62,276 bases of DNA. Origin: Pelagibacteraceae bacterium AG-426-P20. Its GTDB lineage: Bacteria > Pseudomonadota > Alphaproteobacteria > Pelagibacterales > Pelagibacteraceae. Of this stretch, positions 2,100 to 19,282 are shown piece after piece. Within the stretch, counting starts at the first letter, position 1. Every line of letters begins with the position of its first letter. Under the pieces are notes generated by a model, which ran no database searches, was not told the DNA's origin, and saw nothing but the letters and a program-made list of their open reading frames with translations. Position numbers and translations under genes: made by a program. The stretch is from contig QCNX01000001.1 in assembly GCA_003210015.1 (NCBI GenBank), positions 1-62,276 of the forward strand, given 5' to 3'.

Positions 2100-2447
2100 A
2101 TGAAAACTACAAAAGAGTTATTGAATTTTTGGGAAGATCAAATGAAATTATCTCATACTTCAAGCAATTATTTTTTTCGTAAATCTCCATCACATTATCA
2201 TATGATGCTTTTAGTAATGAATGCATATAAATATAACGAAAATTTAACAGTCGAAGAGTTAAAAACTAGATTATTTAAAACTTCTAGGCCAAAATCTGCA
2301 TTAATGATCACTGAAGCTTGTGAGAAGGGTTTTTTCTTACTAGAAAAAACATCTAATGATCAAAGAAAAAAATTTATAAAACCAACTGAAAGTTTCATAA
2401 ATGAATTTGAGGATTACTTAAAAAGATTGAGAGAAATTTCAATCTAA
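2100..2447 (+). CDS. Putative MarR-like winged-helix DNA-binding protein
   Basis: 115 aa. Helical region followed by the wing motif DQRKKFIKPT (DxR..i.lT-like). ATG directly follows the tdm stop codon. Confidence 0.55.
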   Translation: MKTTKELLNFWEDQMKLSHTSSNYFFRKSPSHYHMMLLVMNAYKYNENLTVEELKTRLFKTSRPKSALMITEACEKGFFLLEKTSNDQRKKFIKPTESFINEFEDYLKRLREISI

Positions 2448-5134
2448 CCAGTATTCTTCATTGCTGCTGATATTCCAGCTATTGAAGTAATCATTGCGTC
2501 ATTAAGATATTTTTTGTCAACATTTTTTAATTTCTTATTAGTGGTTTTATTCATTACCACTGCTTGCAAAATATTTAAAACTTCTGAATAAATATTCCTA
2601 ACCAAAACAGTTGTTCGAAATTTTTTTCTTTGATTAAGTATTTCTACTGGAGTTATGTATTTATTTAATCTTTTTATAATATCAAATTCAGATCTAAGTT
2701 TATGACCCACTTCTTTCAATTTTTTATCAGCGAGATTATTTTCGTAAACCTCTGAAATTTCTGGATCAACTTTTGAAACCACCATATCTAATATATCCAT
2801 TGTAGAATTGAAAAATGGCCAATTCTTCTCCATATCTGTAAGTATTTTTTTATATTTTCTATTAGATGAGTATTTTAATGCATCGCCTGTTCCTAGCCAT
2901 GCTGGGAGCATTAATCTAATTTGAGTCCAGGCAAACACCCAAGGTATAGCTCTTAAACTTTGAATATTATCAACATTCTTTCTTTTTGAAGGTCGTGATC
3001 CAATCGACAGTTTTCCAAGAGCTAAATGAGGTGTTACAGTTTTAAAATACCTAATAAAATCAGAATTTTCATTAATATTTTTTCTATATGCTGCTGTTGA
3101 AATTTTTGTCATTTTTTCAATTAAATTTCTCCAACTATCTTTAGGGTATGGAGGTGGATTTAAAGTTGCTTGCATAACAGATCCTATATAACTGCATAAA
3201 TTATATTTTGCTAAAGGTTCATAACCATATTTTTGTTGTATCATCTCACCTTGATCAGTAATTCTAATACGTCCATATACTGATTTTGGTGGTTGTGATC
3301 TCATCGTTGCTTGAATTGGACCGCCACCACGACCTGCTGAACCTCCTCTACCATGAAAAAAAGTGAGTTGGATTTTGTATTTCTTTGCAATCTTTAAAAC
3401 TTCCTCCTGAAGTTTATATTGATGCCAGCTAGCTGATAATTTACCAGCATCTTTACTTGAGTCTGAATAGCCAATCATAATCTCCTGTTGATTACGTATC
3501 AATTTTCTATACCAGCTTAATGAAAAAAGTTTTTCCATTATAGATTTCGCATTTTTTAAATCTTGTAAAGTTTCAAAAAGTGGAACCACTCGTAATTTAG
3601 TTTCTATATTTGCCTCTTTCTGCATCAAATAAACTGCTAAAATATCAGATGCGGCTGAAGTCATAGATATTACATATGCGCCTAGGCATTCTGTAGGTTC
3701 TTCGGCTAAAATTTTAAATGTTGACCAAACCTCGTTATTTTCTTTGTTTTTAAAAATAAAATTCTTAAAATTCTTTTTAGTATTTCTCATAGCATTTGAT
3801 AAGTATCTAATTTTTTTATCCTCATCCCATGCTAGAAAATTAGAATTATTATTCCGCTTAATAAATTCTGCTAATAACTGCGCATGCCTTGAAGACTCTT
3901 GTCGTATATCTATTTTAGCAAGATTTATTCCAAAACATTTAGCTCTTCTCATTAAATCAAGCAATTCACCACTTGCTATATTTTCACTCTGATTATTTTC
4001 TAAAGATTCACGTACAACTCTTAATGGTTTTAAAATCTCTTCCTTGGACGATAAAAGTTTTTTTGGATTTAATGGTTTGTTTGCAACTAAATGTCTTTCA
4101 ATATGTCTGTGAGTTTTTCTCATTTTGTCTCTCAATGGTCTTAGAAAAACTCTATATGGCTCGTAAGTTTTTCCAGTAATTTTTAATATCTTTTTTGAAC
4201 ATTTATCCATAGAAAGTCCTCTAATTAATTTAGTTAATTCTTTCTCATAAAGTTTTGCAGCTTCCCATCTGGATAATAAAATTACCTCTTTAGTAGTTGT
4301 TGATGTCACATTGGGATTACCATCTCTATCACCGCCCATCCATGAACCGAACTCAATTGGATTAAAATTTTTTGGCAAACTTTTGCCCATGTGTTTTAAA
4401 AATATAGCATTCAACCTTCTATAAACTTTTGGAATAGTTTCCCATAAACTGTCCTCGATTACAGCTAGTCCCCACCTTGCCTCCTCTACTGGAGTCGGTT
4501 TAAATCTTTTTAAATCATCAGTATTCCATATAATTGTAAATTCATCGTAAAGTTTTTTATCTAAAATTTTCAATCTTGATGGTTTATTTTTAAGAAGATC
4601 TCTTTGATCCATTATCTCTGTAATTTTGTGGTACTTTTGAATTAATGTCCTTCTTTTTACCTCAGTGGGATGAGCGGTAAGAACTATTCCAATATGAAGA
4701 TTTTTTGCGATGTTATATATCTTTTGAGGCTTAATTTTTTTATTTTTAAAAAGACTTTCAAAAATTTCCTCAATAAAAATATTTTTATGTTTGTCTTTTA
4801 AATTTGAGTTTTCATATTCATCTAATTTTCTAGATGCATCTATTGACTCAGTAAGATTAATAAAATTCATAAAATGTGTAAATGCTCTAGCTAATTTGAA
4901 TATTTTTATAGGTTTTAGTTTCTGAATTTCTGAAGTAATTTTCTTAAATCTATTTTTATTATTTTTATTTTTGGTATTTGCTTTGGATAATAGTCTTATC
5001 TTTTCAACTAAATTGAAAAAACTTTCGCCCTCTTGTTTTTTTATTACTCTACCTAAGATATTTCCTAAATATCTAACATCATCTCTTAAAGATTTGGTAG
5101 GTATACTCTCATAATAAAGATCTCTTTTTAACAT
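2444..5134 (-). CDS. ppc: Phosphoenolpyruvate carboxylase
   Basis: VLTAHPTE, GSWMGGDRDGNP, MIGYSDSSKDAG, FHGRGGSAGRGG, LRAIPWVFAWTQ and C-terminal MKNTG; 896 aa. Confidence 0.97.
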   Translation of the reverse strand: MLKRDLYYESIPTKSLRDDVRYLGNILGRVIKKQEGESFFNLVEKIRLLSKANTKNKNNKNRFKKITSEIQKLKPIKIFKLARAFTHFMNFINLTESIDASRKLDEYENSNLKDKHKNIFIEEIFESLFKNKKIKPQKIYNIAKNLHIGIVLTAHPTEVKRRTLIQKYHKITEIMDQRDLLKNKPSRLKILDKKLYDEFTIIWNTDDLKRFKPTPVEEARWGLAVIEDSLWETIPKVYRRLNAIFLKHMGKSLPKNFNPIEFGSWMGGDRDGNPNVTSTTTKEVILLSRWEAAKLYEKELTKLIRGLSMDKCSKKILKITGKTYEPYRVFLRPLRDKMRKTHRHIERHLVANKPLNPKKLLSSKEEILKPLRVVRESLENNQSENIASGELLDLMRRAKCFGINLAKIDIRQESSRHAQLLAEFIKRNNNSNFLAWDEDKKIRYLSNAMRNTKKNFKNFIFKNKENNEVWSTFKILAEEPTECLGAYVISMTSAASDILAVYLMQKEANIETKLRVVPLFETLQDLKNAKSIMEKLFSLSWYRKLIRNQQEIMIGYSDSSKDAGKLSASWHQYKLQEEVLKIAKKYKIQLTFFHGRGGSAGRGGGPIQATMRSQPPKSVYGRIRITDQGEMIQQKYGYEPLAKYNLCSYIGSVMQATLNPPPYPKDSWRNLIEKMTKISTAAYRKNINENSDFIRYFKTVTPHLALGKLSIGSRPSKRKNVDNIQSLRAIPWVFAWTQIRLMLPAWLGTGDALKYSSNRKYKKILTDMEKNWPFFNSTMDILDMVVSKVDPEISEVYENNLADKKLKEVGHKLRSEFDIIKRLNKYITPVEILNQRKKFRTTVLVRNIYSEVLNILQAVVMNKTTNKKLKNVDKKYLNDAMITSIAGISAAMKNTG

Positions 5135-5170
5135 TCAAATTTTCCTTTGAATTTAAGAATATCTATTTTC

Positions 5171-6064
5171 TTATATTTTTTTACCATTTAAAACTGACTT
5201 AACAGTTTCGCCCATTACTGATGGATTCTTTGATATTGTCACACCACACTCTTTCAAAAGCTCAACTTTCTCTACTGCACTTTCGCCATATGCAGAAACA
5301 ATAGCACCTGCATGACCCATTACTCTTCCCTTTGGAGCTGTTAGTCCTGCAATGTATCCTATAACTGGTTTTTTCATATTATCTTTTGCAAACTCTCCTG
5401 CTGCAACTTCTTGTGGTCCACCAATCTCACCAATCATTAAAATTGCATCAGTTTCATTATCAGTCTCAAATTTTTCAATTATATCTCTAAATGAGCTTCC
5501 ATTAATTGGATCTCCTCCAATTCCAACACTGGTCGAAATTCCAATTCCTAAATTTTTCATTTGTTCTGCCGCCTCATAGCCTAAAGTTCCCGATCTGCTT
5601 ATTATTCCAACTTTACCCTCTTTATAAATATGACCGGGCATAATTCCCAGCATTGATTTTCCTGGACTAATAATTCCTGCACAATTTGGTCCGACTAATG
5701 TCATTTTTTCATTTCTAGAATACCTTCTCATATATCTTTTAATTCTGATCATGTCATGAGATGGAATACCATCAACTATAGCTACACAAGTTTTTATACC
5801 CGCATCTGCTGCTTCCATTGCAGAGTCAGCTGCAAAAGCTGGTGGTACAAATAATATTGATGCTGTTGCTCCAGTATGTTTCACAGCATCTTTGACTGTA
5901 TTAAAAACAGGTCTATCCAGATGTTTTTGACCTCCTTTTCCGGGAGTTACACCGCCAACAACATTAGATCCATATTTTATCATTTCTTCTGCATGAAAAG
6001 TCCCCATCTTTCCAGTGAAGCCTTGTATTAAAATTTTTGTATTTTTTTCAATTATGACTGCCAT
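5171..6064 (-). CDS. mtkB: Malate--CoA ligase (malate thiokinase) alpha subunit, SucD family
   Basis: QGFTGKMGTFH, GPNCAGIISPG, phospho-His motif MGHAGA; lies between mtkA and ppc. Confidence 0.85.
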   Translation of the reverse strand: MAVIIEKNTKILIQGFTGKMGTFHAEEMIKYGSNVVGGVTPGKGGQKHLDRPVFNTVKDAVKHTGATASILFVPPAFAADSAMEAADAGIKTCVAIVDGIPSHDMIRIKRYMRRYSRNEKMTLVGPNCAGIISPGKSMLGIMPGHIYKEGKVGIISRSGTLGYEAAEQMKNLGIGISTSVGIGGDPINGSSFRDIIEKFETDNETDAILMIGEIGGPQEVAAGEFAKDNMKKPVIGYIAGLTAPKGRVMGHAGAIVSAYGESAVEKVELLKECGVTISKNPSVMGETVKSVLNGKKI

Positions 6065-6065
6065 T

Positions 6066-7229
6066 TTATTTTTTTAATGCCGCTACTGCTTTATTAGCAG
6101 CATCCTCTAAAGTGTTAGCTTCAATATAATTTAACTTACTATCCCTAAGAATTTTATTTCCTTTTTCAACATTAGTTCCTGCTAATCTTATTACTAAAGG
6201 AACCTTTATTTCTATTTTTTCTAATGCTTGAACTATTCCCTCCGCAACCCAATCACATCTATTTATTCCAGCAAAAATGTTTACTAAAATTACTTTTACT
6301 TTCTTATCCATCGTGATTAATTTAAAAGCTTTTACTATTTTTTCTGGTGTTGCCCCTCCACCTACATCAAGAAAATTAGCTGGTTCTCCCCCTGCTAGTT
6401 TAATCATATCCATAGATGCCATTGCTAATCCAGCGCCATTAATAATATTTCCAATATTTCCATCTAAGCTTACGTAATTTAGACCTCTATCAGATGCATA
6501 AACTTCTTTTTCATCTTCTTGAGTTTTATCTCTAAGTTCAGATACTTTATCTCTCCTAAACATTGCATTATTATCAAAGCTCATTTTACAATCTAAAGCT
6601 AAGATTTGTTTTTGTTTTGAAATTACTAATGGGTTAACTTCAACCATTGTAGCATCCAATTCACTAAAAGCTTTAGCGCAGCCAATAATAGTTTCAGATG
6701 CTCTCCTTATTAATTCTGGTTCGATACCAAGACCAAATGCCAATTCCCTTGCTTGAAAACTTTGTATACCAACCGCAACTTCAATTTTTGATCTAATAAT
6801 AGATTGTGGTTTTTCTTTAGCAATTTCCTCCACACTCATTCCACCTTCAGTGGAAGCTACAACCATTATACTTTCTGAACTTCTATCAAAAACTAATCCT
6901 AAATATAATTCTTTCTCAATGTCAGTTGCTTCCTCAATATAAATTCTATTAACTATTTTACCTTCAGGACCAGTTTGATTTGTTACTAATTTTTTTCCTA
7001 AGAGTTTATCTGTTGCTTGAGCAACTTCTAAAGGTGTATTGCAAATAATTACTCCGCCTGCTTTACCTCTTGCCCCCGAGTGTATTTGTGCTTTTACTAC
7101 CCACTTTGATCCCCCTATTTCTCTAGCTTTATTCTCTGCTGTCTCAGGGCTATAAACTATTCCACCTCTCGGAACTGTAACACCAAAACTAGATAAAATT
7201 TCTTTTGCTTGATATTCGTGTATATCCAT
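6066..7229 (-). CDS. mtkA: Malate--CoA ligase (malate thiokinase) beta subunit, SucC family
   Basis: MDIHEYQAKE, KAQIHSGARGKAGG, NGAGLAM; MtkA-type NIFAGINRCDWVAEG, where SucC typically has NIFGGI[VM]RCD; adjacent to mcl. Confidence 0.88.
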   Translation of the reverse strand: MDIHEYQAKEILSSFGVTVPRGGIVYSPETAENKAREIGGSKWVVKAQIHSGARGKAGGVIICNTPLEVAQATDKLLGKKLVTNQTGPEGKIVNRIYIEEATDIEKELYLGLVFDRSSESIMVVASTEGGMSVEEIAKEKPQSIIRSKIEVAVGIQSFQARELAFGLGIEPELIRRASETIIGCAKAFSELDATMVEVNPLVISKQKQILALDCKMSFDNNAMFRRDKVSELRDKTQEDEKEVYASDRGLNYVSLDGNIGNIINGAGLAMASMDMIKLAGGEPANFLDVGGGATPEKIVKAFKLITMDKKVKVILVNIFAGINRCDWVAEGIVQALEKIEIKVPLVIRLAGTNVEKGNKILRDSKLNYIEANTLEDAANKAVAALKK

Positions 7230-7231
7230 AT

Positions 7232-8170
7232 TTATTTATTATTAATTTTTTTATCAATACTAACAATATTTTCTGCCATTCTTGCTGATGCAGCATCTAT
7301 CATTCTTCCATCGAGTTGGGCAGCACCTTTTCCTGCTTTAGCAGCCTTATCTAATTCCTCTAAAATTCTTTTTGCTTTAGTTACTTCTGATGAAGGTGGA
7401 GAAAAAACTTTATTAGCAAGTTCAATTTGTGAAGGATGAATTGCCCATTTACCTTCTATGCCAATAGCTGCTCCTCTTTTTGCTGCTTCGATATAGGCAT
7501 CAGGATCATTAAAATCACCAAATGGACCATCAATTGCTCTTAAACCATATGCTCTACAAGTCATAACTAATTGAGAAAGTCCATGGTGCCATTGATCACC
7601 CGGATAATCAGGATTTAATCCTCCTATGACAACAGTCCTAGCTCTCAAGCTTGCCGCATAATCAGCAACTCCAAAATGAAGTGCCTCTAACCTTTCACTA
7701 GATTTTGCAATCTCTTTAATGTTCGACATCCCCAGTGCTGTCTCAATTAAACATTCAATGCCTATTTTATTTTTAAATTTTTTGCTGGTTTCTATTTGTG
7801 TCAATAAACAATCAACCATATAAACATCACTAGCAGTTCCAGCTTTTGGTAAAAGAATCGTATCAAGTTTTTCTCCTACTTCTTCAACTATATCGACCAA
7901 ATCTCTATACATATAATGCGTATCAGGACTATTTATTCTTACCGATATAGTTTTTCCACCCTCTCTCCAATTAATATCTTTCAAAGCTTTGATTACATTT
8001 TGACGAGCTGAAATCTTATCCATTGGTGATACCGCATCTTCCAGATCTAAAAAAATATAATCTGCTTTGGAATTTAAAGCTTTTTCAAACATTTCAGGTG
8101 AAGAGCCAGGTACAGCTAGTTCACTTCTTTGCAGTCTTGATCTTGCTGGTTTATAATATTTAAAACTCAT
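7232..8170 (-). CDS. mcl: Malyl-CoA/beta-methylmalyl-CoA lyase (CitE superfamily)
   Basis: RLQRSELAVPGS, FLDLEDAV, SVRINSPDT, LIETALG, LHFGVADYAAS, GKWAIHPSQI, GRMIDAAS. Confidence 0.92.
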   Translation of the reverse strand: MSFKYYKPARSRLQRSELAVPGSSPEMFEKALNSKADYIFLDLEDAVSPMDKISARQNVIKALKDINWREGGKTISVRINSPDTHYMYRDLVDIVEEVGEKLDTILLPKAGTASDVYMVDCLLTQIETSKKFKNKIGIECLIETALGMSNIKEIAKSSERLEALHFGVADYAASLRARTVVIGGLNPDYPGDQWHHGLSQLVMTCRAYGLRAIDGPFGDFNDPDAYIEAAKRGAAIGIEGKWAIHPSQIELANKVFSPPSSEVTKAKRILEELDKAAKAGKGAAQLDGRMIDAASARMAENIVSIDKKINNK

Positions 8171-8206
8171 TCAAATATTATAAATTTTGTTTAAATTCTT
8201 TAATTA

Positions 8207-8230
8207 ATATAATTAACGTATTAATTATAT
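8207..8230. promoter_or_regulatory. Perfect inverted repeat in the divergent promoter region; candidate operator
   Basis: ATATAATTAA-CGTA-TTAATTATAT between mcl and the flavoprotein operon; arms are all A/T so chance is possible. Confidence 0.35.
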
Positions 8231-8305
8231 ATATAGTTTTTAGTAGTAAAAAATAAACTTTAAAAAAATTTTTCCTTTTGTTACAGATTCATTAATTAGT
8301 GAATT

Positions 8306-9634
8306 ATGTCAAAATTACCAACTAAAGCAAAAGTAGTAATAATTGGTGGCGGTATCCACGGTCTTAGTACTGCTTGGAAATTATCTGAGACATACAAAAA
8401 TCCTGGAGACATAGTAGTCCTAGAAAAAAAAGACACTGCAGCAGGTGCAAGTGGAATAGCCTGTGGTGTAATTAGAAATAATTATTTTCAGCCAGCAATG
8501 AGAGAGTTGATGGCTCATTCAGTTTCAGTTTGGGAAAGTGATCCAAAAGCATTTAAATATAATGCAGTTGGTTATTTACAAATATCTCCTGAAGTTATGC
8601 ATAAAGATGTTGCAACAATTTATGAACAGCAAAAAGCAATAGGATACGACTCTGAATTCATTGAAGGTGAAAAAGATTGCATGAATTATATGAAAGGTAT
8701 GTTTGACGATTGGCAAGCCCAAGGAATTACTTCGGTACTTCATGAAAAAAAGGGTGGTTACGCGTTCAATAAAGATTCAATCAAAGCTCTTGAGAATAAA
8801 TCTACATCTAATGGCGTTCAAGTTATTAAAGGTGTTAAAGTAAATGGATTTAAAAGAGGAAGTAATAGCAAAGCTGTTACAGGTGTTGAAACCGATAAAG
8901 GAACTATAGACTGTGAACAGGTGGTTATTGGTGCAGGCCCTTGGGCTAGAGATTTTTGGAATATGCTTGAACTTCCTAAAACTGCAAATATTAAAGGTAA
9001 AGATGGTAAAATGCACACAACTGACATGTGGACATATTGGATGTTACAGGAAGGTGTAATTGGTGTTGAGCCAGATTTTTTAAAAATGAATAATGGTAAA
9101 GCACCACCTGTTATTCACGTAGACTCTACTGCACCTTTGTATTCTGATAAAACAAAAAAATTAATTACAGATAAAATTTGGGGAATTTATTATAAACCAG
9201 ATATCGAAGGCTTAGGAGTGCAAGGTGGTACCTCTCCTTATATTGTTGATAAACATTTTGATCAAGTGAATGTGGATCCTTACGGAATTGACTCACCAGA
9301 GTATCAAACTACTGAAGCGTTTAATGATATGTGGTGTTCTGCTTTGGCTCATTGTCAAAAAAGATTTGAAGGTAAGTCTGATCTTTATAGAAAAGGTCCA
9401 TCAGGTGGATTGGGATGTATGACACCAGACTCTTTCCCGATATTTGATAGATTTTTAGAGAACGTTTATATGATTGCTGATGCTAATCACGGTTATAAAA
9501 TGATTGGTGTTGGTGAATTAGTTGCAAAAGAAATTTTAGGACAAGAGAGTGATTTGTTGAAACCATTCAGATTCAACCGTTACGAGAAGGGTGAACTTCA
9601 CCCTACTTCGAACAGTCCGTTTCCTTGGAGCTAG
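8306..9634 (+). CDS. FAD-dependent amine oxidoreductase, DAO/sarcosine oxidase beta (SoxB/MgdA-like) family
   Basis: VVIIGGGIHG Rossmann motif, GASGIACGVIRNNY, TPDSFPIF, HGYKM; first gene of the NMG operon. Confidence 0.8.
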   Translation: MSKLPTKAKVVIIGGGIHGLSTAWKLSETYKNPGDIVVLEKKDTAAGASGIACGVIRNNYFQPAMRELMAHSVSVWESDPKAFKYNAVGYLQISPEVMHKDVATIYEQQKAIGYDSEFIEGEKDCMNYMKGMFDDWQAQGITSVLHEKKGGYAFNKDSIKALENKSTSNGVQVIKGVKVNGFKRGSNSKAVTGVETDKGTIDCEQVVIGAGPWARDFWNMLELPKTANIKGKDGKMHTTDMWTYWMLQEGVIGVEPDFLKMNNGKAPPVIHVDSTAPLYSDKTKKLITDKIWGIYYKPDIEGLGVQGGTSPYIVDKHFDQVNVDPYGIDSPEYQTTEAFNDMWCSALAHCQKRFEGKSDLYRKGPSGGLGCMTPDSFPIFDRFLENVYMIADANHGYKMIGVGELVAKEILGQESDLLKPFRFNRYEKGELHPTSNSPFPWS

Positions 9635-9663
9635 CTGATCTAAGTAGACAGACGTTTTTTTTT
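9615..9663 (+). terminator. Terminator/attenuator-like hairpin spanning the flavoprotein stop codon
   Basis: GTCCGTTT(9615-22)/AGACAGAC(9646-53) and CTTGGA(9624-29)/TCTAAG(9639-44) stems, followed by 9 T (9655-63). Confidence 0.5.
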
Positions 9664-9701
9664 CAGTTACTTTTTGATCTTAAAATTCTTAAAGGGGGAA
9701 T

Positions 9702-11171
9702 ATGACGGATTTAGAAAAACATGTAAAAAAACCTGGTAGAGACAAATTAGTTAAACAAGTTAGAGCAAAAATTAACGAACTTGGAATTGAGTATATTTTT
9801 TTTCAATTTATATCTGTTACAGGAAGAGTTGTTGGTAAAGGTATTCCTTCAGATCATTGGGAAAGAACATGTGAAAAAGGATTTCAATTAGTTTATGGAG
9901 CAACTGCAAACTTATTTTTAGATAGACACAATAATTACATTGGTTATGGACCTGAAGCTAAAGAACTTGTGGGTATTCCTGATCCAGAAACTTTTTGTCA
10001 ATTACCTTGGGATAAAAAAGTTGCAAGAGTTTTTGTAACTTGCTTTAGAAATAGAGAAGAGAGAGAAAATCCAGGTGGTCATTTAACTTCTGACTGTAGA
10101 GGAAACTTAAGAATAATTGCTGAAGAATTTAAGAAAAAACACGGTTATCAACTTAGAGTTGGAACAGAGCCTGAAATGATGTGGTTAACTAGAAATGAGG
10201 ATGGAACTCCAACTGGTAAAGGGTTTTCTAAACCATACTGTTATCATATTGATCAATTTGAATCTTTGAGACCTGTATTTATGAAAGTTATGGAATACGC
10301 AAGAGCTATGGGATTTGATATGATTCAAGGTGACCATGAAGATGCACCAGGACAACTAGAATTAAATTGGATGTTTGATGATGTATTAAGAAATGCTGAC
10401 AGATTATCTACTTACAGACAGATATGTGCACAAGTTGCTAGAGAGTTTAACTTAATAGCATGTTTTATGACAAAACCATTTATGGGTGTTTCAGCAAGTG
10501 GTTGTCATACTAATATGTCGTTATGGTCTGGTGGAAAAGATGTAGTGAATAAATTAGGACATAAATCTATTCCTGCAATGGATGAAGTTTTTAGTTATGT
10601 GGAAGGCGGAACAAATACTTTCATGCCAGATACAAAAGATGTTCAATTACCTGGTAAAGTAGGATTAAAATCAATTGGTGGAATAATGAAACATCTTCCT
10701 GCATTAACTGCAATTGGATCTTCTACCGTTAATTCTTACAGAAGATTATGGGATCAAGGATTTTGGGCGCCAGTCTATGCTGATTGGGGTTATCAAAATA
10801 GAACTTGTGGATTAAGAGTTTCAGCTCCAGGAAGATTTGAATATAGATCAGTTGACTCTATGCATAATCCTTATTTGATGGGCGCAGCATTATTTAAAGC
10901 TATGGATGATGGTTTAACAAATAATATTGATCCGGGTAAGCCTGAGTCGAGAAATATTTATGAAGCTCAAAAAGCTGGTAAAGATGTAAAAAAATTACCT
11001 TTAAGTCTTGGTCAAGCATTAGATAGATTGTCTGAGGATAAAGTTATTCAATCTGCGATGCCAGATGAAATGTATAAAATATTTCATTGGTATAAAAATG
11101 ATGAATGGGAGAGATTTTTAGGTGCAACAACTCAATGGGATCTAGATACTTATTTAGATTGCTTACCATAG
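9702..11171 (+). CDS. Glutamine synthetase-family gamma-glutamylamide ligase (GmaS/GlnT-like paralog)
   Basis: GTEPEM, DHEDAPGQLELN, KPFMGVSASGCHTN, QNRTCGLR, RFEYRSVD..NPYL; SD GGGGG. Confidence 0.8.
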   Translation: MTDLEKHVKKPGRDKLVKQVRAKINELGIEYIFFQFISVTGRVVGKGIPSDHWERTCEKGFQLVYGATANLFLDRHNNYIGYGPEAKELVGIPDPETFCQLPWDKKVARVFVTCFRNREERENPGGHLTSDCRGNLRIIAEEFKKKHGYQLRVGTEPEMMWLTRNEDGTPTGKGFSKPYCYHIDQFESLRPVFMKVMEYARAMGFDMIQGDHEDAPGQLELNWMFDDVLRNADRLSTYRQICAQVAREFNLIACFMTKPFMGVSASGCHTNMSLWSGGKDVVNKLGHKSIPAMDEVFSYVEGGTNTFMPDTKDVQLPGKVGLKSIGGIMKHLPALTAIGSSTVNSYRRLWDQGFWAPVYADWGYQNRTCGLRVSAPGRFEYRSVDSMHNPYLMGAALFKAMDDGLTNNIDPGKPESRNIYEAQKAGKDVKKLPLSLGQALDRLSEDKVIQSAMPDEMYKIFHWYKNDEWERFLGATTQWDLDTYLDCLP

Positions 11172-11201
11172 GTCTTAAAATATTATTGAAAGGGTAAATT
11201 T

Positions 11202-12146
11202 ATGTGTGGAATTGCTGGTTTAATTCATAGAGGTAAATCTTCAAATGTTGGAAGTGAGCTACAGGGTATGCTTCAAGCACTAAAACATAGAGGTGAAGAC
11301 TCAACAGGTTATGCTTTATATGGAGATACTGATGGAAAAAATTTTGTCATGCGTTTTAAAGTTGGAGAAAATGTTGGTGAGGGAAGTTCATCAGTTATGG
11401 AAGATGTTTCAGTTTATGATGAGAGAAAAAAAATTGTAGATGAATACCTTTCAGAGATGGGAGCAAAAATTGTTAAAGAGGAAAGAACTCTTCCTTACTC
11501 ATTAAGATATGAAATTGATTATGATGCAAAAGACTTGTTGGAATTTTCTCAAAAAATAGAAAGTATTCCAGGTGTTGAAATTCTTTCAATGGGAAAATCA
11601 TTAGAAGTAATCAAAGATTTAGGTAATGCGAAAATGGTTTGTGATAGATACAGTTTAGATAAAGTTGTTGGTACACATGCTATCGGTCATGCTAGAATGG
11701 CAACAGAGTCAGGGGTTGATATTAAATCTGCCCATCCTTTTTGGGGCTACCCATTCAGTGATGTATCTGTTGTCCATAATGGACAACTTACAAATTACTG
11801 GAACAATAGAAGAGCTTTGGAAAATAAAGGCATGAGATTTATGTCAGAGTGTGACTCAGAATTAATAGCCGTTTATATAGCGCAAAAAATGAGAGAAGGA
11901 GCTAGTCTTGAAGAGGGAATGAAAGACTCTTTGTTAGGTCTTGATGGGGTATTTACATATTTTGTTGCAACTAAGGACTCTTTAGGAATGGCAAAAGATA
12001 CAATGGCTGCCAAACCATTGGTTCTTTATGAGTCAGATGAATTGGTGGCAATGGGTTCAGAAGAAATAGCAATTAGATCAGTTCTACCACAAGAAATTGA
12101 TACATATGATCCATTTGATGGGGAGGTAAAAGTATGGCGAATATAA
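11202..12146 (+). CDS. mgsA: N-methylglutamate synthase subunit A (class II glutamine amidotransferase, GlxB)
   Basis: N-terminal MCGIAG, HRGEDSTG, GHARMATES, AHPF, HNGQLTN. Confidence 0.85.
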   Translation: MCGIAGLIHRGKSSNVGSELQGMLQALKHRGEDSTGYALYGDTDGKNFVMRFKVGENVGEGSSSVMEDVSVYDERKKIVDEYLSEMGAKIVKEERTLPYSLRYEIDYDAKDLLEFSQKIESIPGVEILSMGKSLEVIKDLGNAKMVCDRYSLDKVVGTHAIGHARMATESGVDIKSAHPFWGYPFSDVSVVHNGQLTNYWNNRRALENKGMRFMSECDSELIAVYIAQKMREGASLEEGMKDSLLGLDGVFTYFVATKDSLGMAKDTMAAKPLVLYESDELVAMGSEEIAIRSVLPQEIDTYDPFDGEVKVWRI

Positions 12147-12988
12147 AAACTATTGAAAAAAAATCAAAAGCTCAGTCAATGGGAATGCACACTGAAGTTT
12201 TAACGGGTAGAACTCAACAAAAATTTTTTAATCCTGATGAAGCTGAAAATTTTTATTACTTCGGTACATATGATGTGGATTTTAATAAAAGAACAGATCT
12301 TGATGTAAAAGATATGACAGCACCAGAAGCAAATAAGGAAATTGATAAATTAATGAGTGAAGGTTATGGAACAATTGTAATCAAAAACCCTCAAGGTAAA
12401 CATAGTTTAGGCGTTGGTATTCTTAATAAACTAAACTTAATTTTCGAAGGTAGCTTGGGTTATTTTGGTATGGGCTCATGTGATGGACCTACAGTTAGAA
12501 TCAACGGTAGAGTTGGTTGGTCTTGTGCAGAAAATTTGATGGCAGGTAAAGTGGTTATTGAGAAAAATGCTGGATCTTGTTTTGGAGCAGCTATTAGAGG
12601 TGGAGATTTGATATGTAAAGGAAGTGTTGGTGCTAGAACTGGTATCGATATGAAAGGTGGAACTATAATAATTGGCGGTGATGCTGGAGCTTTTACAGGT
12701 TTTATGATGCAAAGAGGACGAATTATCATCTTGGGAGATGTTGGAATAAACCTAGGCGACTCTATGTATGATGGGACAATTTTCGTAGGTGGAAAAATTG
12801 GTTCTTATGGTAGTGATGCCGTTGACTCTGAACTTACCAAAAGTGATCAAGATTGGTTAAAAAGAAAATTGAAAGTTGCAGAGATTGGTGAAAATTTTAA
12901 TGTAAGTAAAATGAAAAAAATTGTAGCAGGTAAAAAACTTTGGAATTACGATAACTTAGAACCTACTGAGAAAAAAGGAGCGATCTAA
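12134..12988 (+). CDS. mgsB: N-methylglutamate synthase subunit B (GXGXG beta-helix, GlxC)
   Basis: Repeated GXGXG-type units, ENLMAG, GIDMKGG, GDSMYDG, C-terminal KLWNYD. Confidence 0.85.
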   Translation: MANIKTIEKKSKAQSMGMHTEVLTGRTQQKFFNPDEAENFYYFGTYDVDFNKRTDLDVKDMTAPEANKEIDKLMSEGYGTIVIKNPQGKHSLGVGILNKLNLIFEGSLGYFGMGSCDGPTVRINGRVGWSCAENLMAGKVVIEKNAGSCFGAAIRGGDLICKGSVGARTGIDMKGGTIIIGGDAGAFTGFMMQRGRIIILGDVGINLGDSMYDGTIFVGGKIGSYGSDAVDSELTKSDQDWLKRKLKVAEIGENFNVSKMKKIVAGKKLWNYDNLEPTEKKGAI

Positions 12989-14397
12989 TGGCAAAAAGAA
13001 AAGTAAAAAAGAAATCAAATGGTAAAGGTGTGGGCGGAAAAGCTGATGTTCATGCACATGAAGAAGGTAAAAGAAATAAAAGCCTACTTGGACATAATGC
13101 TATTTTTACCCCTGAGGTAATAGACGATATTCATATAAAGTCTCAGTTAGGAAGATACAGAATGCGTGGAATGGCGCTAATGAAAAAAATTCCTACATTT
13201 GACGACTTGGTATTTTTACCAGGAACATTAACAAGATTTGTAATTGAAGGTTACAGGGAAAAATGTGAAACAAAAACTGTTATTGGGCCAAGATGTGAAA
13301 ATCCAATTGAGTTAGATATTCCTGTTTACATTACGGGGATGAGTTTTGGAGCACTTTCTTATGAGGCAAAAACAGCTTTAGCTAGAGGAGCTACAATGGC
13401 TGGAAGTGCAACATGTTCAGGAGAGGGTGGAATGATACCAGATGAAAGAAGATACTCTGAAAAATGGTATTACCAATGTATTCAATCAAGATATGGTTTC
13501 AATCCTCATCATGCGCAATTAGCTGATGGAATAGAAGTTTTTATTGGCCAAGGACAAAAAGTTGGTATGGGAGGTCACTTAATGGGCCAAAAAGTAACTG
13601 ACCAAGTTGCTGAAATGAGATCACTACCATCAGGTATTGACCAAAGATCACCTGCGAGACACCCAGACTGGTTAGGTCCAGATGATTTAGCTCTCAAAGT
13701 TGAAGAGTTACGACAATTAACTAAAAATAAAGTGCCAATTCAATTAAAGCTTGGTGCATCAAAAGTTTATGATGATGTCCGTATGGCTGCAAAATGTGAT
13801 CCTGACTCTATATATTTAGATGGTATGGAAGGATCTACTGGAGCTGGTCCGCACATCGCAGCTGCAAACACAGGAATTCCAGGAATTGCTGCTATCAGAG
13901 AAGCTAGAAGAGCCATTGATGATGTTGGTAAAACTGGAAAAGTAACTTTAATTTATGCTGGAGGAGTTAGAGATGGTGCTGATATGGCAAAAGCTTTAGC
14001 GTTAGGTGCTGACGCAATTGCAATTGGTACTGGATCTATGATTGCGTTAAATTGTAATAAAGATATTCCAGAAGCAAACTTTGAAAAAGAAATGGGTGTA
14101 AAAGCTGGTGAATGTTATCACTGCCATACTGGAAGATGTCCAGTAGGTGTTGCTACTCAAGATCCAAAATTGAGAGCAAGATTAAACCCAGATGATGCAG
14201 CTCTTAGAGTTTATAATTATTTACATTCTATGACATTAGAAGCACAACTTTTAGCAAGAGCGTGTGGAAAAACAAATATCCACTCATTAGAGCCTGAAGA
14301 TTTAGCTGCACTAACATCTGAAGCCTCAGCTTTAGCAAAAGTTCCATTAGCTGGAACTAATTATACAGTTGGAGTTGATAACTATCACAAAATATAA
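12988..14397 (+). CDS. mgsC: N-methylglutamate synthase subunit C (FMN/Fe-S glutamate synthase family, GlxD)
   Basis: GMSFGALS, SGEGG, GQGQKVGMGGHL, RHPDWLGPDDL, CYHCHTGRCPVGVATQ. Confidence 0.88.
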   Translation: MAKRKVKKKSNGKGVGGKADVHAHEEGKRNKSLLGHNAIFTPEVIDDIHIKSQLGRYRMRGMALMKKIPTFDDLVFLPGTLTRFVIEGYREKCETKTVIGPRCENPIELDIPVYITGMSFGALSYEAKTALARGATMAGSATCSGEGGMIPDERRYSEKWYYQCIQSRYGFNPHHAQLADGIEVFIGQGQKVGMGGHLMGQKVTDQVAEMRSLPSGIDQRSPARHPDWLGPDDLALKVEELRQLTKNKVPIQLKLGASKVYDDVRMAAKCDPDSIYLDGMEGSTGAGPHIAAANTGIPGIAAIREARRAIDDVGKTGKVTLIYAGGVRDGADMAKALALGADAIAIGTGSMIALNCNKDIPEANFEKEMGVKAGECYHCHTGRCPVGVATQDPKLRARLNPDDAALRVYNYLHSMTLEAQLLARACGKTNIHSLEPEDLAALTSEASALAKVPLAGTNYTVGVDNYHKI

Positions 14398-14408
14398 GGA
14401 TAATAACT

Positions 14409-14825
14409 ATGGCGAAAAAAAAGGTTAAAAAAGTAGTTAAAGCAAAAGTTAAAGAGGTCAAAGGCCAATTAGGTAAAAAAGCAGAAACAGCTAGAGAAAA
14501 AATGATCGGTCAATCAATTGGTTACCGATATGATGTTAATCTTTTACCTGACTACAGTAAACTAACACCCTTTCTTAAAAAATACATAGAAGCAATGGGG
14601 TGGGATGATTTGAATTGGTTAGAAGATGTTCATATGGGATATGAAGAAGATAGGCCGGCAGTATTTTGCAGAAATGCTAACGGCTGGGTTACAATCCCGA
14701 AATCTATAAAGCTACCAAATAACCAGCAAGATAGAGATATGATAGCAAGAGAGCTTTTGGTTAAGTTCCAAATGTCACCTAAACATCCTCTTGTTGATTT
14801 GAAAAAAGCTTACCTAAAATTTTAA
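14409..14825 (+). CDS. Hypothetical protein in the mgs operon
   Basis: 138-aa ORF with SD AAGGA, 11 nt after mgsC; Lys-rich N-terminus. Confidence 0.75.
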   Translation: MAKKKVKKVVKAKVKEVKGQLGKKAETAREKMIGQSIGYRYDVNLLPDYSKLTPFLKKYIEAMGWDDLNWLEDVHMGYEEDRPAVFCRNANGWVTIPKSIKLPNNQQDRDMIARELLVKFQMSPKHPLVDLKKAYLKF

Positions 14826-14851
14826 TTTCACAATCTAAAGTTGATTTTTTT

Positions 14852-14884
14852 TTAAAAACCTACTGTCTTAGTTGGGTTTTTTAA
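14852..14884 (+). terminator. Probable intrinsic terminator after the mgs operon
   Basis: AAAAACCTACT-GTCTT-AGTTGGGTTTTTT hairpin with T-run. Confidence 0.55.
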
Positions 14885-14953
14885 GCTTCTTTTGTTTGTC
14901 ACTCCTCTTAAAATTTAATAGGATTTTGAAAACTAAATAAGGAGAAAGAGAAT

Positions 14954-16354
14954 ATGACTGATCAGTTAGGTGCTCTTACAACCATATTTACAGAATTTTA
15001 CTACTGGGTAACAGTAGTACTAATGTTTTTAATTCACGTTGGTTTCTGTATGTATGAAGTTGGAGCTTCTCGATACAAACACCATCAACATACTCTTATG
15101 AAAAATACTATGCTGATACCATTGGTAACAGTAACTTGGTTTTTCTTTGGTTGGTGGATTTACTGGGCATTCCCAACAGGACCGGGAATAGCGCCTTCAA
15201 TAATGAATGAAAGCACTGCTTTAATTACCGATGAAAGTACTTTTAGTGCTAGATGGTACGTTGCAGCAAGTGAATACATGGCAATTAATTTAGGAGATCA
15301 CATTTCTGGTGTATTCTGGGCTGCATTCTTACTGTTCTCATGGACAGCTGCTTCTATTGTTTCAGGAGCAATCATTGAAAGAATTACAACTTTTGCATTT
15401 GGAATTTTAGCAATAGCAATTGGATCTGTATTTTGGACAATTGACGCTGCTTGGGGATGGCACTTTGATGGATGGATGCTTAAAATTTTAGGATATCATG
15501 ATGCTTATGCATCAGGAGTAATTCACGCAATTGCAGGTGGATTTGCTTTAGGTGTTCTATGCGTTTTAGGACCAAGAATTGGTAAATTTTCATCAAGTGG
15601 TGAACCAAGAAATATAGGACCAAGAAATCCTTGGCTAGTAACAGTTGGATTATTTTTAATTTATACTGGTTTCTGGGGATTTTATGCAGCATGTAATATA
15701 CCAATCTTTGACCTTGGACCCGAATATGGGATGGAAGGTGTAACTTATTGGACAGCTACAAACATATACGTAACCCCTACTACACTTAGTGGTATTACTT
15801 TTAACTTCTTGATGTCATTATCAGGTGGATTATTAGCCGGTTATTGGATTGCTAAAGGTGATCCTTTCTGGACATACTCAAGTGGACTAGCAGGTGTTAT
15901 CTGTGCTTCAGCTGGAAATGATTTATATCATCCAATTCAAGCAATGATCATTGGTATGATCGGTGTTGTAATTGCATACAAACTACATTACTGGGTTGAG
16001 CGTAAGTTCAAAATTGATGATGCAGTTGGTGCAGTAGCAGTTCATGGTTATGCTGGCTTTGTTGGTCTAGTAATTTGTGGTTTTGTCTTAAATGGATATC
16101 CATCATCTGGTTACAGTGTTGGTGCTATGTGGGATGGAACAACTTATGCATCAATCAATCCATTGGGGCAATTCTTAGGAGCAATAATAATGTTTGGTGT
16201 TCTTGGAATGCTACCAGGTTATGTCATAGCTAAAGTACTTCATGGAATGGGTAAATTAAGAATCCCGCGTGAAGTAGAAATAGCTGGACTTGACTATGAA
16301 ATGATGGAGTCTGCTAAGAGTGATGAAAAAGCAGTTTCATCCGCAACCAGGTAA
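14954..16354 (+). CDS. amt: Amt-family (methyl)ammonium transporter, divergent
   Basis: About 11 hydrophobic segments, SGAIIER, twin His (VIHAIAG, DDAVGAVAVHG), LGPRIGKF; SD AAGGAG. Confidence 0.9.
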   Translation: MTDQLGALTTIFTEFYYWVTVVLMFLIHVGFCMYEVGASRYKHHQHTLMKNTMLIPLVTVTWFFFGWWIYWAFPTGPGIAPSIMNESTALITDESTFSARWYVAASEYMAINLGDHISGVFWAAFLLFSWTAASIVSGAIIERITTFAFGILAIAIGSVFWTIDAAWGWHFDGWMLKILGYHDAYASGVIHAIAGGFALGVLCVLGPRIGKFSSSGEPRNIGPRNPWLVTVGLFLIYTGFWGFYAACNIPIFDLGPEYGMEGVTYWTATNIYVTPTTLSGITFNFLMSLSGGLLAGYWIAKGDPFWTYSSGLAGVICASAGNDLYHPIQAMIIGMIGVVIAYKLHYWVERKFKIDDAVGAVAVHGYAGFVGLVICGFVLNGYPSSGYSVGAMWDGTTYASINPLGQFLGAIIMFGVLGMLPGYVIAKVLHGMGKLRIPREVEIAGLDYEMMESAKSDEKAVSSATR

Positions 16355-16366
16355 AGGAGATAAAAT

Positions 16367-16591
16367 ATGGCTACAGTTACAAACTGGATCGATCACCTAA
16401 GTGCTGAAGAAGTTGTAGGTGCTGTTTACCCTGGTGCTGGTGGTTCAGAAATGACACTAGTTATCATTGGTATCGTTTTATGGTTAGGCTGGCATGTTTT
16501 GACTGCAAGATCTGAAAGTGAAGAACTTTCAAGACTAGCAAGAAAAAGACATGGAGCTAATGATCATAAAAGCAATATTACCGATTGGTAA
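16367..16591 (+). CDS. Small single-pass membrane protein co-transcribed with amt
   Basis: SD AAAGGAG; TM segment LVIIGIVLWLGWHVL; terminator follows. Confidence 0.8.
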   Translation: MATVTNWIDHLSAEEVVGAVYPGAGGSEMTLVIIGIVLWLGWHVLTARSESEELSRLARKRHGANDHKSNITDW

Positions 16592-16606
16592 TTTAAAATG
16601 AAATTT

Positions 16607-16636
16607 GGGCGCTACTTAATTGTGGCGCCCTTTTTT
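16607..16636 (+). terminator. Rho-independent terminator
   Basis: GGGCGCTAC-TTAATT-GTGGCGCCC followed by TTTTTT. Confidence 0.85.
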
Positions 16637-16652
16637 AATCTTCAATCATAAA

Positions 16653-16808
16653 ATGTCAGAAGAAAATAATAACGAAGAATTAAGACCGACCAAAATGCGA
16701 GGGGTTGCGTTCCCTAAAGCAAAATACGGGGTAATATTGGCAGTAATTATAATTATTGTTGTTAATATTATATACTACAAGGAAACAATTTTTTCTTTTT
16801 TTAAATAA
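16653..16808 (+). CDS. Small hypothetical membrane protein (51 aa)
   Basis: The ATG at 16653 lies past the terminator, whereas the track start at 16620 lies inside it; one TM segment GVILAVIIIIVVNIIYY. Confidence 0.55.
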   Translation: MSEENNNEELRPTKMRGVAFPKAKYGVILAVIIIIVVNIIYYKETIFSFFK

Positions 16809-16825
16809 CTATGTTAATTTAATTT

Positions 16826-18154: not shown

Positions 18155-19282
18155 ATGACAATTTTATCTAACGGCCATTTGTGGAAACACAGTGAGTTTA
18201 TTGAAAATAAAAATTTTTCATTCAATAAAAATAAAATTCTTAGCTCATTATCTAAAAAAGATATTGATGATGCTTACTTAAGCATATCAAGCTGGGAAGG
18301 ATATTCTCCAACTCCATTAATTGAATTAGATAAACTTTCAAAAGAACTAAACTTAAATAAAATTTTTTACAAAGATGAGAGTAAAAGATTTGACCTTAAA
18401 TCTTTTAAAGCTCTTGGTGGAGCTTATGCAGTAGAAAAAGTTTCTAACGGAAATAAAGATATAGTAGTTGCAACTGCAACAGCAGGTAATCACGGTAGAT
18501 CTGTTGCCTGGGGTGCAAGAAGACTTGGTTTGAAATGTAAAATTTTTATAAGTGAATTTGTAAGTGATGCAAGAGGACAGGCAATGGCTGATCTTGGTGC
18601 TGATGTTGTAAAAGTCAAAGGCAATTATGAAAAATCATTAATTGAGTGTATTAAACAATCAACAGATAATAACTGGCAAATAGTTCAAGATGTTGCCTGG
18701 AAAGATTATATGATTGTTCCAAAGTATACCATGGCAGGTTATACGGTTATGATGAGAGAAATTGTTGATCAGATTAATGTAAATAAAATTACCCATATAA
18801 TTTTACAAGCAGGTGTAGGTGGCATGGCAGGAGCAATGGTAGCAGGAATAGCAAGATATCTTGATAATGTTCCAACTACTATAACTGTAGAGCCAGATAG
18901 TGCAGCATGTGTTTTGGAAAGTATCAGAACAGGTAAAATAGAAAAAATTGATATCAAAAGAGAAAGCTTAATGGGGGGTATGTCGTGTGGAGAAGTATCA
19001 TTGGTCCCATGGGAAATTTTAAAAAATTCTGTTAAATATTGTATTAGTTTACCTGATGATGATATTGCAAAAACAATGAAATTACTTGGAAACGCAAGTT
19101 TTAGTGAAGAGAAAATAATTGCTGGAGAAAATTCTGCTCCTGGCGTAATCAGTTTAATTACAAGTTGTGAGGATGAAAAAATAAAAGAAAAAATTAAGTT
19201 AAATAAAGATTCAAATGTAATGCTAATTGGTTGCGAGGGAGATACAGACCAGAAAATGTACCAAAAATTAATAAGCCAATAA
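18155..19282 (+). CDS. dpaL: Diaminopropionate ammonia-lyase (PLP fold II)
   Basis: KDESKRFDLKSFKALGG (PLP lysine), ATAGNHG, QAGVGG, GMSCGE, EGDTD. Confidence 0.8.
   Translation: MTILSNGHLWKHSEFIENKNFSFNKNKILSSLSKKDIDDAYLSISSWEGYSPTPLIELDKLSKELNLNKIFYKDESKRFDLKSFKALGGAYAVEKVSNGNKDIVVATATAGNHGRSVAWGARRLGLKCKIFISEFVSDARGQAMADLGADVVKVKGNYEKSLIECIKQSTDNNWQIVQDVAWKDYMIVPKYTMAGYTVMMREIVDQINVNKITHIILQAGVGGMAGAMVAGIARYLDNVPTTITVEPDSAACVLESIRTGKIEKIDIKRESLMGGMSCGEVSLVPWEILKNSVKYCISLPDDDIAKTMKLLGNASFSEEKIIAGENSAPGVISLITSCEDEKIKEKIKLNKDSNVMLIGCEGDTDQKMYQKLISQ

Follow-up and report, generated by a model that had tools for sequence, protein, structure and literature searches.

A malate thiokinase/malyl-CoA lyase cassette beside a resident-type PEP carboxylase gene at the methylamine locus of a SAR11 genome

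The serine cycle of Methylorubrum (Methylobacterium) extorquens AM1 uses malate thiokinase (Mtk), malyl-CoA lyase (Mcl) and phosphoenolpyruvate (PEP) carboxylase (Ppc), whose genes are clustered (PMC2948502). In an engineered reverse glyoxylate shunt, MtkAB and Mcl cleave malate in the same two steps and lead to glyoxylate, glycine and one-carbon (C1) units (PMC11880463). SAR11 bacteria are said to oxidise C1 compounds solely to gain energy (PMC3160333), and glyoxylate is the known precursor of glycine in this group (PMC6775983). Here we describe genes for the same three activities, mcl, mtkA, mtkB and ppc, in a stretch of 62,276 nucleotides (the window; contig QCNX01000001.1, positions 1 to 62,276) from Pelagibacteraceae bacterium AG-426-P20. 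The four genes lie co-oriented on the minus strand, each with an open reading frame (ORF), next to genes for the use of trimethylamine N-oxide (TMAO) and methylamine. The module likely works in the manner of the glyoxylate-regenerating arm of the serine cycle, a natural reverse glyoxylate shunt, and not as a closed cycle.

The enzyme identities that a sequence-only reading of this DNA had proposed are borne out by model scores, structure matches and a motif. MtkA scores 634.8 bits against the malate--CoA ligase beta model NF010647 (cut-off 604) and 527.7 bits against the SucC model NF001913, a margin of 107 bits. The assembly (genome G000; 909,565 bases in 59 contigs, here numbered with a C; 76% complete) encodes a separate SucC/SucD pair on C17, ahead of sucAB-like genes, so the ligase is not a SucCD-like only copy. 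The partial SucC of this pair scores in the opposite order (432.5 bits for NF010647, 462.2 bits for the SucC model). MtkA is 50% identical to it, and MtkB is 53% identical to the genome's own SucD. MtkA carries the expected motif NIFAGINRCDWVAEG (NIFAGINRCD), whereas the genome's SucC has NIFGGIMRCD and the loop of E. coli SucC reads FGGIVRCD. The FAGINRCD loop occurs in 53/54 cassette-type rows and is common to the MtkA of serine-cycle clusters, with which the window's MtkA also groups. MtkB matches SucD-family models and no MtkB-specific model, and is 61-72% identical to alpha subunits adjoining mcl/mtkA in serine-cycle-type clusters outside SAR11. The best PDB matches of Mcl are the malyl-CoA lyases 5ugr (390 bits, E 7e-116), which we take to be the M. 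extorquens enzyme, and 4l9y (280 bits, E 2e-82), with CitE-like entries at 105 bits or below. Residues R78, E143, D170 and D292 of Mcl correspond to the catalytic Arg, the Mg-binding Glu and Asp, and the C-terminal Asp, where the thioesterase group has Glu, as hand-mapped from the 5ugr/4l9y alignment onto Arg76, Glu141, Asp168 and Asp299 of PMC3832036. Because these residues are common to most of the CitE superfamily, the assignment of Mcl is carried by sequence closeness. Ppc, the single tblastn match in the assembly, scores 943.5 bits against NF000584 (cut-off 815). By sequence, MtkAB, Mcl and Ppc are thus bona fide members of the malate thiokinase (EC 6.2.1.9), L-malyl-CoA lyase and PEP carboxylase families, and ATP-dependent formation of L-malyl-CoA is the likely, predicted activity of MtkAB.

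The mobile unit is mcl-mtkA-mtkB, a three-gene cassette with two alternative sites. A close orthologue of Mcl occurs in 28 of 400 other genomes of the family, and in 72 of 284 genomes of the genus (that is, in 71 of 283 other genomes, at 84-96% identity). Nearly all of the genus genomes searched are at least 85% complete, and 30 of the 171 that are at least 90% complete carry Mcl. Both the 28/400 and the 72/284 counts include an unpublished genome, G223, which is used nowhere else. The 48 genomes whose gene context was read comprise this genome, all but one of the 28 from the family search, and 20 hand-picked (non-random) from 49 new carriers in the genus. The cassette lies in the methylamine/TMAO neighbourhood in 20 of these, between hisE and hinT in 26, where neither C1 genes nor ppc adjoin it, and elsewhere in two. 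In G152 it stands outside both main sites, beside formate-dehydrogenase-like and Fhs-like genes. The methylamine site is empty in the non-carriers G023, G073 and G008, and the hisE-hinT site is empty in this genome. Trees were made with FastTree, except for a quick tree of Ppc, and the MtkA of G152, broken in its locus, was excluded. The trios of SAR11 fall into a single group, which also takes in some marine Alphaproteobacteria and a small sister pair from Gammaproteobacteria. Copies from the two sites are intermingled in this tree, and the window's clade of 12 contains both. In marine Alpha- and Gammaproteobacteria the trio also occurs without C1 genes (L050-L065).

Several genes join the cassette at particular loci. 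An AGXT-type aminotransferase does so in 4 of the 20 methylamine-site copies, and in G085 and G030 (L165, L171) the cassette with ppc adjoins genes for a SerA-like dehydrogenase, SerC and a DUF1015 protein; this kind of serine-biosynthesis block is rare in Pelagibacter. The labels SerA, formate dehydrogenase and Fhs are presumed from domain matches. No transporter accompanies the cassette in the 48 contexts. Named cultured taxa with MtkA are Ca. Pelagibacter sp. RS40 (P0080) and Ca. P. communis (P0060), and MtkA entries from cultured taxa are already correctly labelled in public databases.

Judged by its sequence, the ppc gene is recruited from SAR11 stock and not imported. The window Ppc shares 65-91% identity with unlinked SAR11 Ppc, against 25-29% with the Ppc of gammaproteobacterial and Gemmatimonadales serine-cycle clusters; SAR11 and methylotroph-cluster Ppc form separate clades, joined by a branch of more than 4 changes per column. 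Gene content was surveyed in a panel of 65 genomes, comprising 28 carriers (including this genome) and 37 non-carriers of the same genus, the latter a non-random choice. A ppc gene is present in 26/28 carriers and 29/37 non-carriers. Among the 48 contexts, it lies co-oriented 3' of mtkB in 14 of the 20 methylamine-site copies versus 0 of the 26 hisE-site copies (one of which is truncated where its contig ends), a difference with a Fisher p of 2e-7 that is overstated by kinship. Three Ppc lineages fill this slot, about 90%, 74% and 51% identical to the window Ppc; for two of these lineages the nearest relatives stand at unlinked sites. The first comprises the window copy with those of G217 and G546 and an unlinked copy in G315; the second, G507 with unlinked copies in G385 and G073; the third is the lineage at about 51%. 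Both native ppc sites known from relatives are empty in this genome (C5:2544/2557 and C29:805/808). They presumably lie between an aldehyde dehydrogenase gene and a ccdA-like gene on C5 and behind a glycosyltransferase-like gene on C29. The window Ppc is closer to that of G217 (90%) than to those of nearer relatives (72-73%), which suggests that the resident ppc allele was replaced in this genome. G263 has a frameshifted ppc at the native site (L254, C1:447632-450255) together with an intact, divergent cassette ppc; the frameshift may reflect decay of the resident gene or an error in the assembly, and the adjoining ccdA-like gene looks truncated too.

Wholesale import of a methylotroph operon is ruled out by the Ppc and aminotransferase trees; in the latter, SAR11 AGXT forms its own clade, apart from methylotroph Sga and sister to a stand-alone paralogue. 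The sequence-only reading had called the locus a serine-cycle signature operon, a label that is overstated: a SAR11-type ppc, and the aminotransferase where present, have been recruited round a three-gene cassette that more often stands at hisE-hinT, free of C1 genes and ppc.

Three roles had been suggested for the locus: methylotrophy, a route by way of glyoxylate to glycine, and reverse operation in place of malate synthase. The second is the best supported, with ppc placed behind mtkB at the methylamine site. We put the probability at about 55% that the module is a carbon-sparing source of glyoxylate for glycine and serine, powered by C1 oxidation. In this scheme PEP and bicarbonate would give oxaloacetate, malate, malyl-CoA and then glyoxylate and acetyl-CoA, so that one C3 compound and bicarbonate would yield two C2 units with no CO2 lost. 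Glyoxylate would be transaminated to glycine, to which GlyA would add methylene-tetrahydrofolate (methylene-THF) from TMAO or methylamine to form serine, and some methyl carbon would thereby enter biomass. The cost in ATP and NADH would be paid by C1 oxidation through the neighbouring genes. We infer the flux direction, the co-transcription, the aminotransferase used and the physiological benefit each from gene content and context.

The Ppc reaction cannot be reversed and yields a C4 compound, oxaloacetate. The repeated placement of ppc behind mtkB therefore speaks for a module that is fed with malate and cleaves it, and not for one that synthesises it. Disposal of glyoxylate is already covered, since the malate synthase gene glcB is kept in 26/28 carriers. 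The genes that join the cassette are glycine/serine or C1 genes (AGXT-type, SerA-like, SerC, formate dehydrogenase-like and Fhs-like), which also counts for a role in glycine and serine supply. In a rough calculation from standard energies, the middle estimate favours cleavage until [acetyl-CoA/CoA] x [glyoxylate/malate] exceeds about 7-700. Engineered MtkAB and Mcl rescue an E. coli strain auxotrophic for C1 units and glycine (PMC11880463).

A number of observations weigh against this role. The least favourable energy estimate puts the equilibrium ratio at about 1. Isocitrate lyase (aceA) already yields glyoxylate in 23/28 carriers, so the cassette is not the sole source. An AGXT-type aminotransferase was found neither here nor in 20/28 carriers, and is no commoner in carriers (8/28, 3 of them linked) than in non-carriers (16/37), three weak hits (E 1e-4 to 1e-3) having been dropped. 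More than half of the copies read (26/48) stand at hisE-hinT with no link to C1 genes or ppc. The methylamine cluster is itself near-core without the cassette, its first gene being matched in 63/65 panel genomes, cassette present or not, and ppc has no match in 2/28 carriers. Glycine dependence is described as genus-wide (10.64898/2026.04.03.716430), and strain HTCC7211, carrier or not, has a four-fold lower yield without glycine (PMC6775983).

RNA runs were considered for expression and not used as evidence. The 24 runs share only 0.05-0.23 of the sampled words. Contigs from four of them (85% likeness) cover the four genes, with single contigs bridging ppc-mtkB and mtkB-mtkA; these come from relatives, do not show strand or level, and may derive from DNA.

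A closed serine cycle of the isocitrate lyase type, with a plant-type glycerate 3-kinase, would run from glycine and methylene-THF through serine, hydroxypyruvate, glycerate, 3-phosphoglycerate, PEP and malate to glyoxylate and acetyl-CoA, with net C1 assimilation and thus true or partial methylotrophy in at least some carriers. We consider this unlikely. It is likewise doubtful that some Pelagibacter lineages assemble a working cycle from the mobile mcl-mtkAB and resident parts, and so assimilate methylamine or TMAO carbon together with CO2; the parts that might serve are the SAR11-type Ppc and AGXT, the plant-type glycerate 3-kinase, an Hpr-like reductase and isocitrate lyase, an assignment that we hold just as tentatively. 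A search of the genome for sga, hpr, gck, glyA, aceA and aceB had been proposed. It yields GlyA (C9), glcB (C31), an Hpr-like gene (C2) and a class III glycerate-kinase-like gene (C29); at 76% completeness it yields no match to aceA or to Sga/AGXT (two queries and Pfam PF00266). Enolase (C53), Mdh (C51) and a PPDK-family fragment are also present, and spot checks for GlyA, PPDK-family, Eno and Mdh were positive for each in 5/5 carriers. The window itself had been reported to lack recognisable sga, hpr and gck. This stands for gck, while a 2-hydroxyacid dehydrogenase (59858-60808) is a weak match to Hpr at 34%.

Glycerate kinases of classes I and II have no match in the 65 panel genomes, with controls detected. 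The conclusion that the genus has no glycerate kinase was overturned by the class III candidate (C29:4547-5473, L208), whose best PDB match is the D-glycerate 3-kinase 6ckg (E 8e-21). This gene is matched in 58/65 panel genomes, 23/28 carriers (two frameshifted) and 35/37 non-carriers, and D-glycerate 3-kinase (K15918) is annotated as 'Core' in supplement 2 of PMC12636525. With a 3-kinase a mutase step would be needed, because the AM1 glycerate kinase forms 2-phosphoglycerate (PMC2948502). The Hpr/glyoxylate-reductase-like gene (C2:8996-9949) is 39% identical to serine-cluster Hpr, below curated cut-offs, and is found in 62/65 genomes (26/28 carriers, 36/37 non-carriers), unlinked to the cassette. 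Since the kinase and the Hpr-like gene are near-core, the parts list of a serine cycle exists on paper in six of the 28 carriers (G295, G385, G179, G263, G126 and G009), where the trio and ppc are accompanied by AGXT, Hpr-like and GLYK-like genes and, in five of the six, by aceA as well. The class III kinase thus leaves a closed cycle possible in a minority of carriers, and mcl, mtkA and agxt are co-listed in two named genera (PMC12636525, supplement 2).

Against a closed cycle, G217, which is 98% complete and has the same four-gene order as the window, gives no match to the AGXT, Hpr-like or glycerate kinase queries, and this genome gives none to AGXT. The Hpr-like and GLYK-like genes are not tied to the cassette, being as frequent in non-carriers. 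Ccr over cut-off, L-serine dehydratase SdaA (PF03313) and Gcl over cut-off were each found in 0/5 carriers. In SAR11-dominated natural communities only 2-6% of C1 label enters biomass (PMC3160333). The methylotrophy suggested from the sequence thus finds its parts in a minority of carriers, and lacks a detectable Sga/AGXT in the genome for which it was proposed.

Some related routes and genes were also considered. A modified serine cycle by way of SdaA and a glyoxylate carboligase route are both unsupported (0/5 each); in the synthetic version of the former, SdaA reportedly returns pyruvate to PEP or oxaloacetate. The PALP-family matches resemble CysK, ThrC, TrpB and a diaminopropionate-lyase-like protein, the first three labels being presumed from context. 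Two generic class I aminotransferases, on C2 and C3, are candidate glyoxylate transaminases in this genome. The one on C2 stands in a row with a GlcD-like oxidase and the Hpr-like reductase (C2:8996-12544, L205), without the glcF that is found 5' of the reductase elsewhere. Tandem lactate-dehydrogenase/hydroxy-acid-oxidase-like genes lie at C2:12617-14920, the second apparently split into two ORFs. Together with glycine cleavage and GlyA, the class III kinase and the Hpr-like gene, which lies 3' of glcF in glycolate-positive genomes, resemble a photorespiration-type salvage route, which would run from glycolate or serine to 3-phosphoglycerate.

The module may instead serve to catabolise external malate (or citramalate or beta-methylmalate) from phytoplankton exudate by splitting it to acetyl-CoA and glyoxylate, the link with methylamine genes being a by-product of a recombination-prone site. 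The trio does change sites with no matching split in the tree, as in the mixed clade of 12, and occurs without C1 genes in other marine Proteobacteria. Malyl-CoA lyases are promiscuous (PMC3832036), the genes are filed under 'Malate/oxoacetate metabolism' in offshore genera (PMC12636525), and an exchange of malate between Prochlorococcus and SAR11 has been proposed (PMC6775983). Against this, 4/4 near-complete carriers tested have malic enzyme, which uses malate at lower cost (this genome gives no match), none of the 48 contexts shows a transporter accompanying the cassette, and the repeated placement of ppc is left unexplained. We regard this role as improbable.

Reverse operation, the third role suggested from the sequence, would have Mcl condense glyoxylate with acetyl-CoA and Mtk conserve the thioester energy as ATP, bypassing malate synthase; the glyoxylate would come from purines, glycolate or isocitrate lyase. 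Both reactions are reversible (for Mcl, PMC3832036), 26 of the 48 copies have no adjoining ppc, and the window encodes an allantoinase PuuE, an allantoicase and a ureidoglycolate-lyase-like protein (28474-30864), which are glyoxylate-yielding. The purine-breakdown block, on the same contig as the cassette, extends over 28474-32365 and also holds an NCS1 transporter. A glycine riboswitch, by Rfam at gathering score, is seen 5' of glcB neither here (C31, L206, accA-glcB) nor at 4/5 other glcB loci scanned, L114 being the only one with it; riboswitch control of glcB is apparently patchy. The suggestion is nevertheless weakened by glcB itself, which is intact in this genome and, if not switched off, would win over a route close to equilibrium. 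For a module that produces malate, repeated coupling to ppc would be hard to understand, and the rough thermodynamic estimates mostly favour cleavage. We rate reverse operation as quite unlikely. Mutual exclusion of the cassette with malate synthase or isocitrate lyase was ruled out, with glcB in 26/28 carriers versus 37/37 non-carriers and aceA in 23/28 versus 35/37. An anti-correlation with glycolate oxidase (GlcF-type in 3/21 near-complete same-genus carriers versus 16/37 non-carriers, p 0.04) was dropped, since GlcF is present in 5/6 carriers of other genera and kinship confounds the comparison.

It is highly improbable that the cluster lacks a malyl-CoA function, its ligase being another succinyl-CoA synthetase and its lyase some generic CitE-like protein, as might be supposed from the match of the alpha subunit to SucD models only, from the annotation of Mcl relatives as 'citrate lyase beta' or 'CoA ester lyase' in public records, and from the PDB matches of the ligase, all 11 of which are succinyl-CoA synthetases with no Mtk among them, given the model scores and motif of MtkA, the reversed scores of the SucC on C17, and the 390 bits of Mcl to malyl-CoA lyase.

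The features of the locus are collected in Table 1.

Table 1. Features of the cassette and its surroundings in the window.
Feature	Position	Strand	Basis
mcl, L-malyl-CoA lyase, 312 aa; opens the cassette	7232..8170	-	PDB matches, catalytic residues, orthologues
mtkA, malate thiokinase (malate--CoA ligase) beta subunit, 387 aa	6066..7229	-	NF010647, motif, grouping with MtkA
mtkB, malate thiokinase alpha subunit, 297 aa	5171..6064	-	SucD-family; assigned by context
ppc, PEP carboxylase, ordinary SAR11 type, 896 aa	2444..5134	-	NF000584
Divergent intergenic region, 135 nt, AT-rich, between mcl and methylamine genes	8171..8305	.	Spacing
Conserved 115-aa ORF 3' of tdm; edge of insertion site	2100..2447	+	No NCBIfam/Pfam match
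tdm, TMAO demethylase, N-terminus cut by contig end	30..2099	+	NF053776 1082.9 bits (cut-off 1100)
N-methylglutamate-pathway cluster	8306..18151	+	Model matches

The layout agrees with the sequence-only reading, which had described four intact, co-oriented genes, closely spaced from mcl to mtkB, between tdm and the N-methylglutamate operon and divergent from the latter. The gaps are 2 nt (mcl/mtkA), 1 nt (mtkA/mtkB) and 36 nt (mtkB/ppc), and the 3' end of ppc shares 4 nt with the convergent 115-aa ORF, which goes unmentioned in the sequence-only reading. The N-methylglutamate cluster holds genes for an FAD oxidoreductase (presumably MgdA-like, from context), a glutamine-synthetase-family protein, three glutamate-synthase-like subunits, an ammonium transporter and a type III glutamate--ammonia ligase (GmaS-like; 16826-18151; TIGR03105, 623.5 bits, cut-off 469.6). 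The intergenic region between mcl and this cluster presumably holds the promoters, judging by the spacing. Rfam has no match in it, its promoter-like sites number 27 versus 32 in shuffles, and promoter and terminator scans are at chance level; Rfam finds no riboswitch in the window. The 115-aa ORF (72-83% identity) lies directly 3' of tdm in carriers and non-carriers alike, and in the cassette-free G023, G073 and G008 it is 75-100 nt from the FAD-oxidoreductase gene. From its appearance, it may putatively be a small DNA-binding regulator of the TMAO/methylamine genes.

The GC content of the four genes, overall and at third codon positions, equals that of neighbouring genes, so no recent foreign origin is visible from composition. 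Neighbouring and housekeeping genes have a median identity of 62-93% to named Pelagibacteraceae contigs, while the few genes shared with two non-SAR11 loci reach only 34-46%. The host is therefore a SAR11 bacterium (Pelagibacteraceae), which disposes of the doubt raised earlier about the origin of the contig.

Two other features of the window may be recorded. A gene for a diaminopropionate ammonia-lyase-like pyridoxal phosphate enzyme (18155-19282, plus strand; NF006058, 395.9 bits, cut-off 276) lies directly 3' of the GmaS-like gene and keeps this position in the cassette-free G023 and G073. Speculatively, such an enzyme could free methylamine and pyruvate from N-methylated diaminopropionate and so feed the N-methylglutamate pathway. 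An Rfam rhtB small RNA motif (RF01814, 80.6 bits; minus strand) is found at 58471-58553, where a gene for an RhtB/LysE-type transporter starts.

This predicted malate-cleaving module occurs in about a quarter of the Pelagibacter species representatives searched (72/284), and its union with the resident CO2-fixing Ppc has come about repeatedly at the methylamine site. Should it run in the forward direction, energy from C1 compounds could be spent on saving organic carbon, on fixing bicarbonate and on making precursors of glycine, with a bearing on SAR11 niche partitioning and on anaplerotic CO2 uptake in the ocean. If a closed serine cycle were true, part of the ocean's most abundant clade would be facultative methylotrophs and not pure methylovores. 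The question is directly testable, since the cultured RS40 and Ca. P. communis carry MtkA and an E. coli selection strain exists.

The comparison with known systems sets out what is particular to the SAR11 locus. Of the canonical serine-cycle features, GlyA, enolase, Mdh, Ppc, Mtk and Mcl are present here, whereas Sga has no match in this genome and Ppc is not of the serine-cycle-cluster type. Compared with AM1, the locus has a housekeeping-type Ppc and holds neither sga nor hpr; no class I/II glycerate kinase turned up in the panel and no Ccr over cut-off in the five genomes tested, and malate synthase and mostly isocitrate lyase are kept in SAR11 carriers. Clusters of the order folD-sga-mcl-mtkA-mtkB-hpr-ppc-mtd in marine Gammaproteobacteria and Gemmatimonadales (L070, L075, L081, L097, L099, L103) share the mcl-mtkA-mtkB order, with Mcl 69-72% and MtkA 62-66% identical. 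They carry their own Sga, Hpr and Ppc (26-28% identical), while SAR11 Ppc and AGXT form separate clades. The engineered reverse glyoxylate shunt is synthetic and plasmid-borne, with enzymes of Methylococcus and Rhodobacter (PMC11880463), whereas the SAR11 module is natural and its probable direction is read from context. Tucker et al. 2025 (PMC12636525, supplementary file 2) tabulate the same genes, mcl (K08691) and mtkA (K14067), for offshore-associated SAR11, in Superipelagibacter, Atlantikopelagibacter and half of Accedentipelagibacter, with agxt in three genera. In the main text of that paper 'malyl' and 'mtk' do not occur, and its section 17 gives no gene context, ppc recruitment or serine-cycle reading. 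Our literature searches, whose scope excluded subscription journals and bioRxiv supplements (including that of a 135-genome preprint), listed no paper interpreting the mcl-mtkAB module in SAR11. The enzymes are ordinary and already annotated, and mcl and mtkA are already tabulated for SAR11; new here are the prevalence of the cassette, its two insertion sites, the recruitment of a resident ppc, which is repeated and confined to the methylamine site, and the candidate glycerate kinase of class III.

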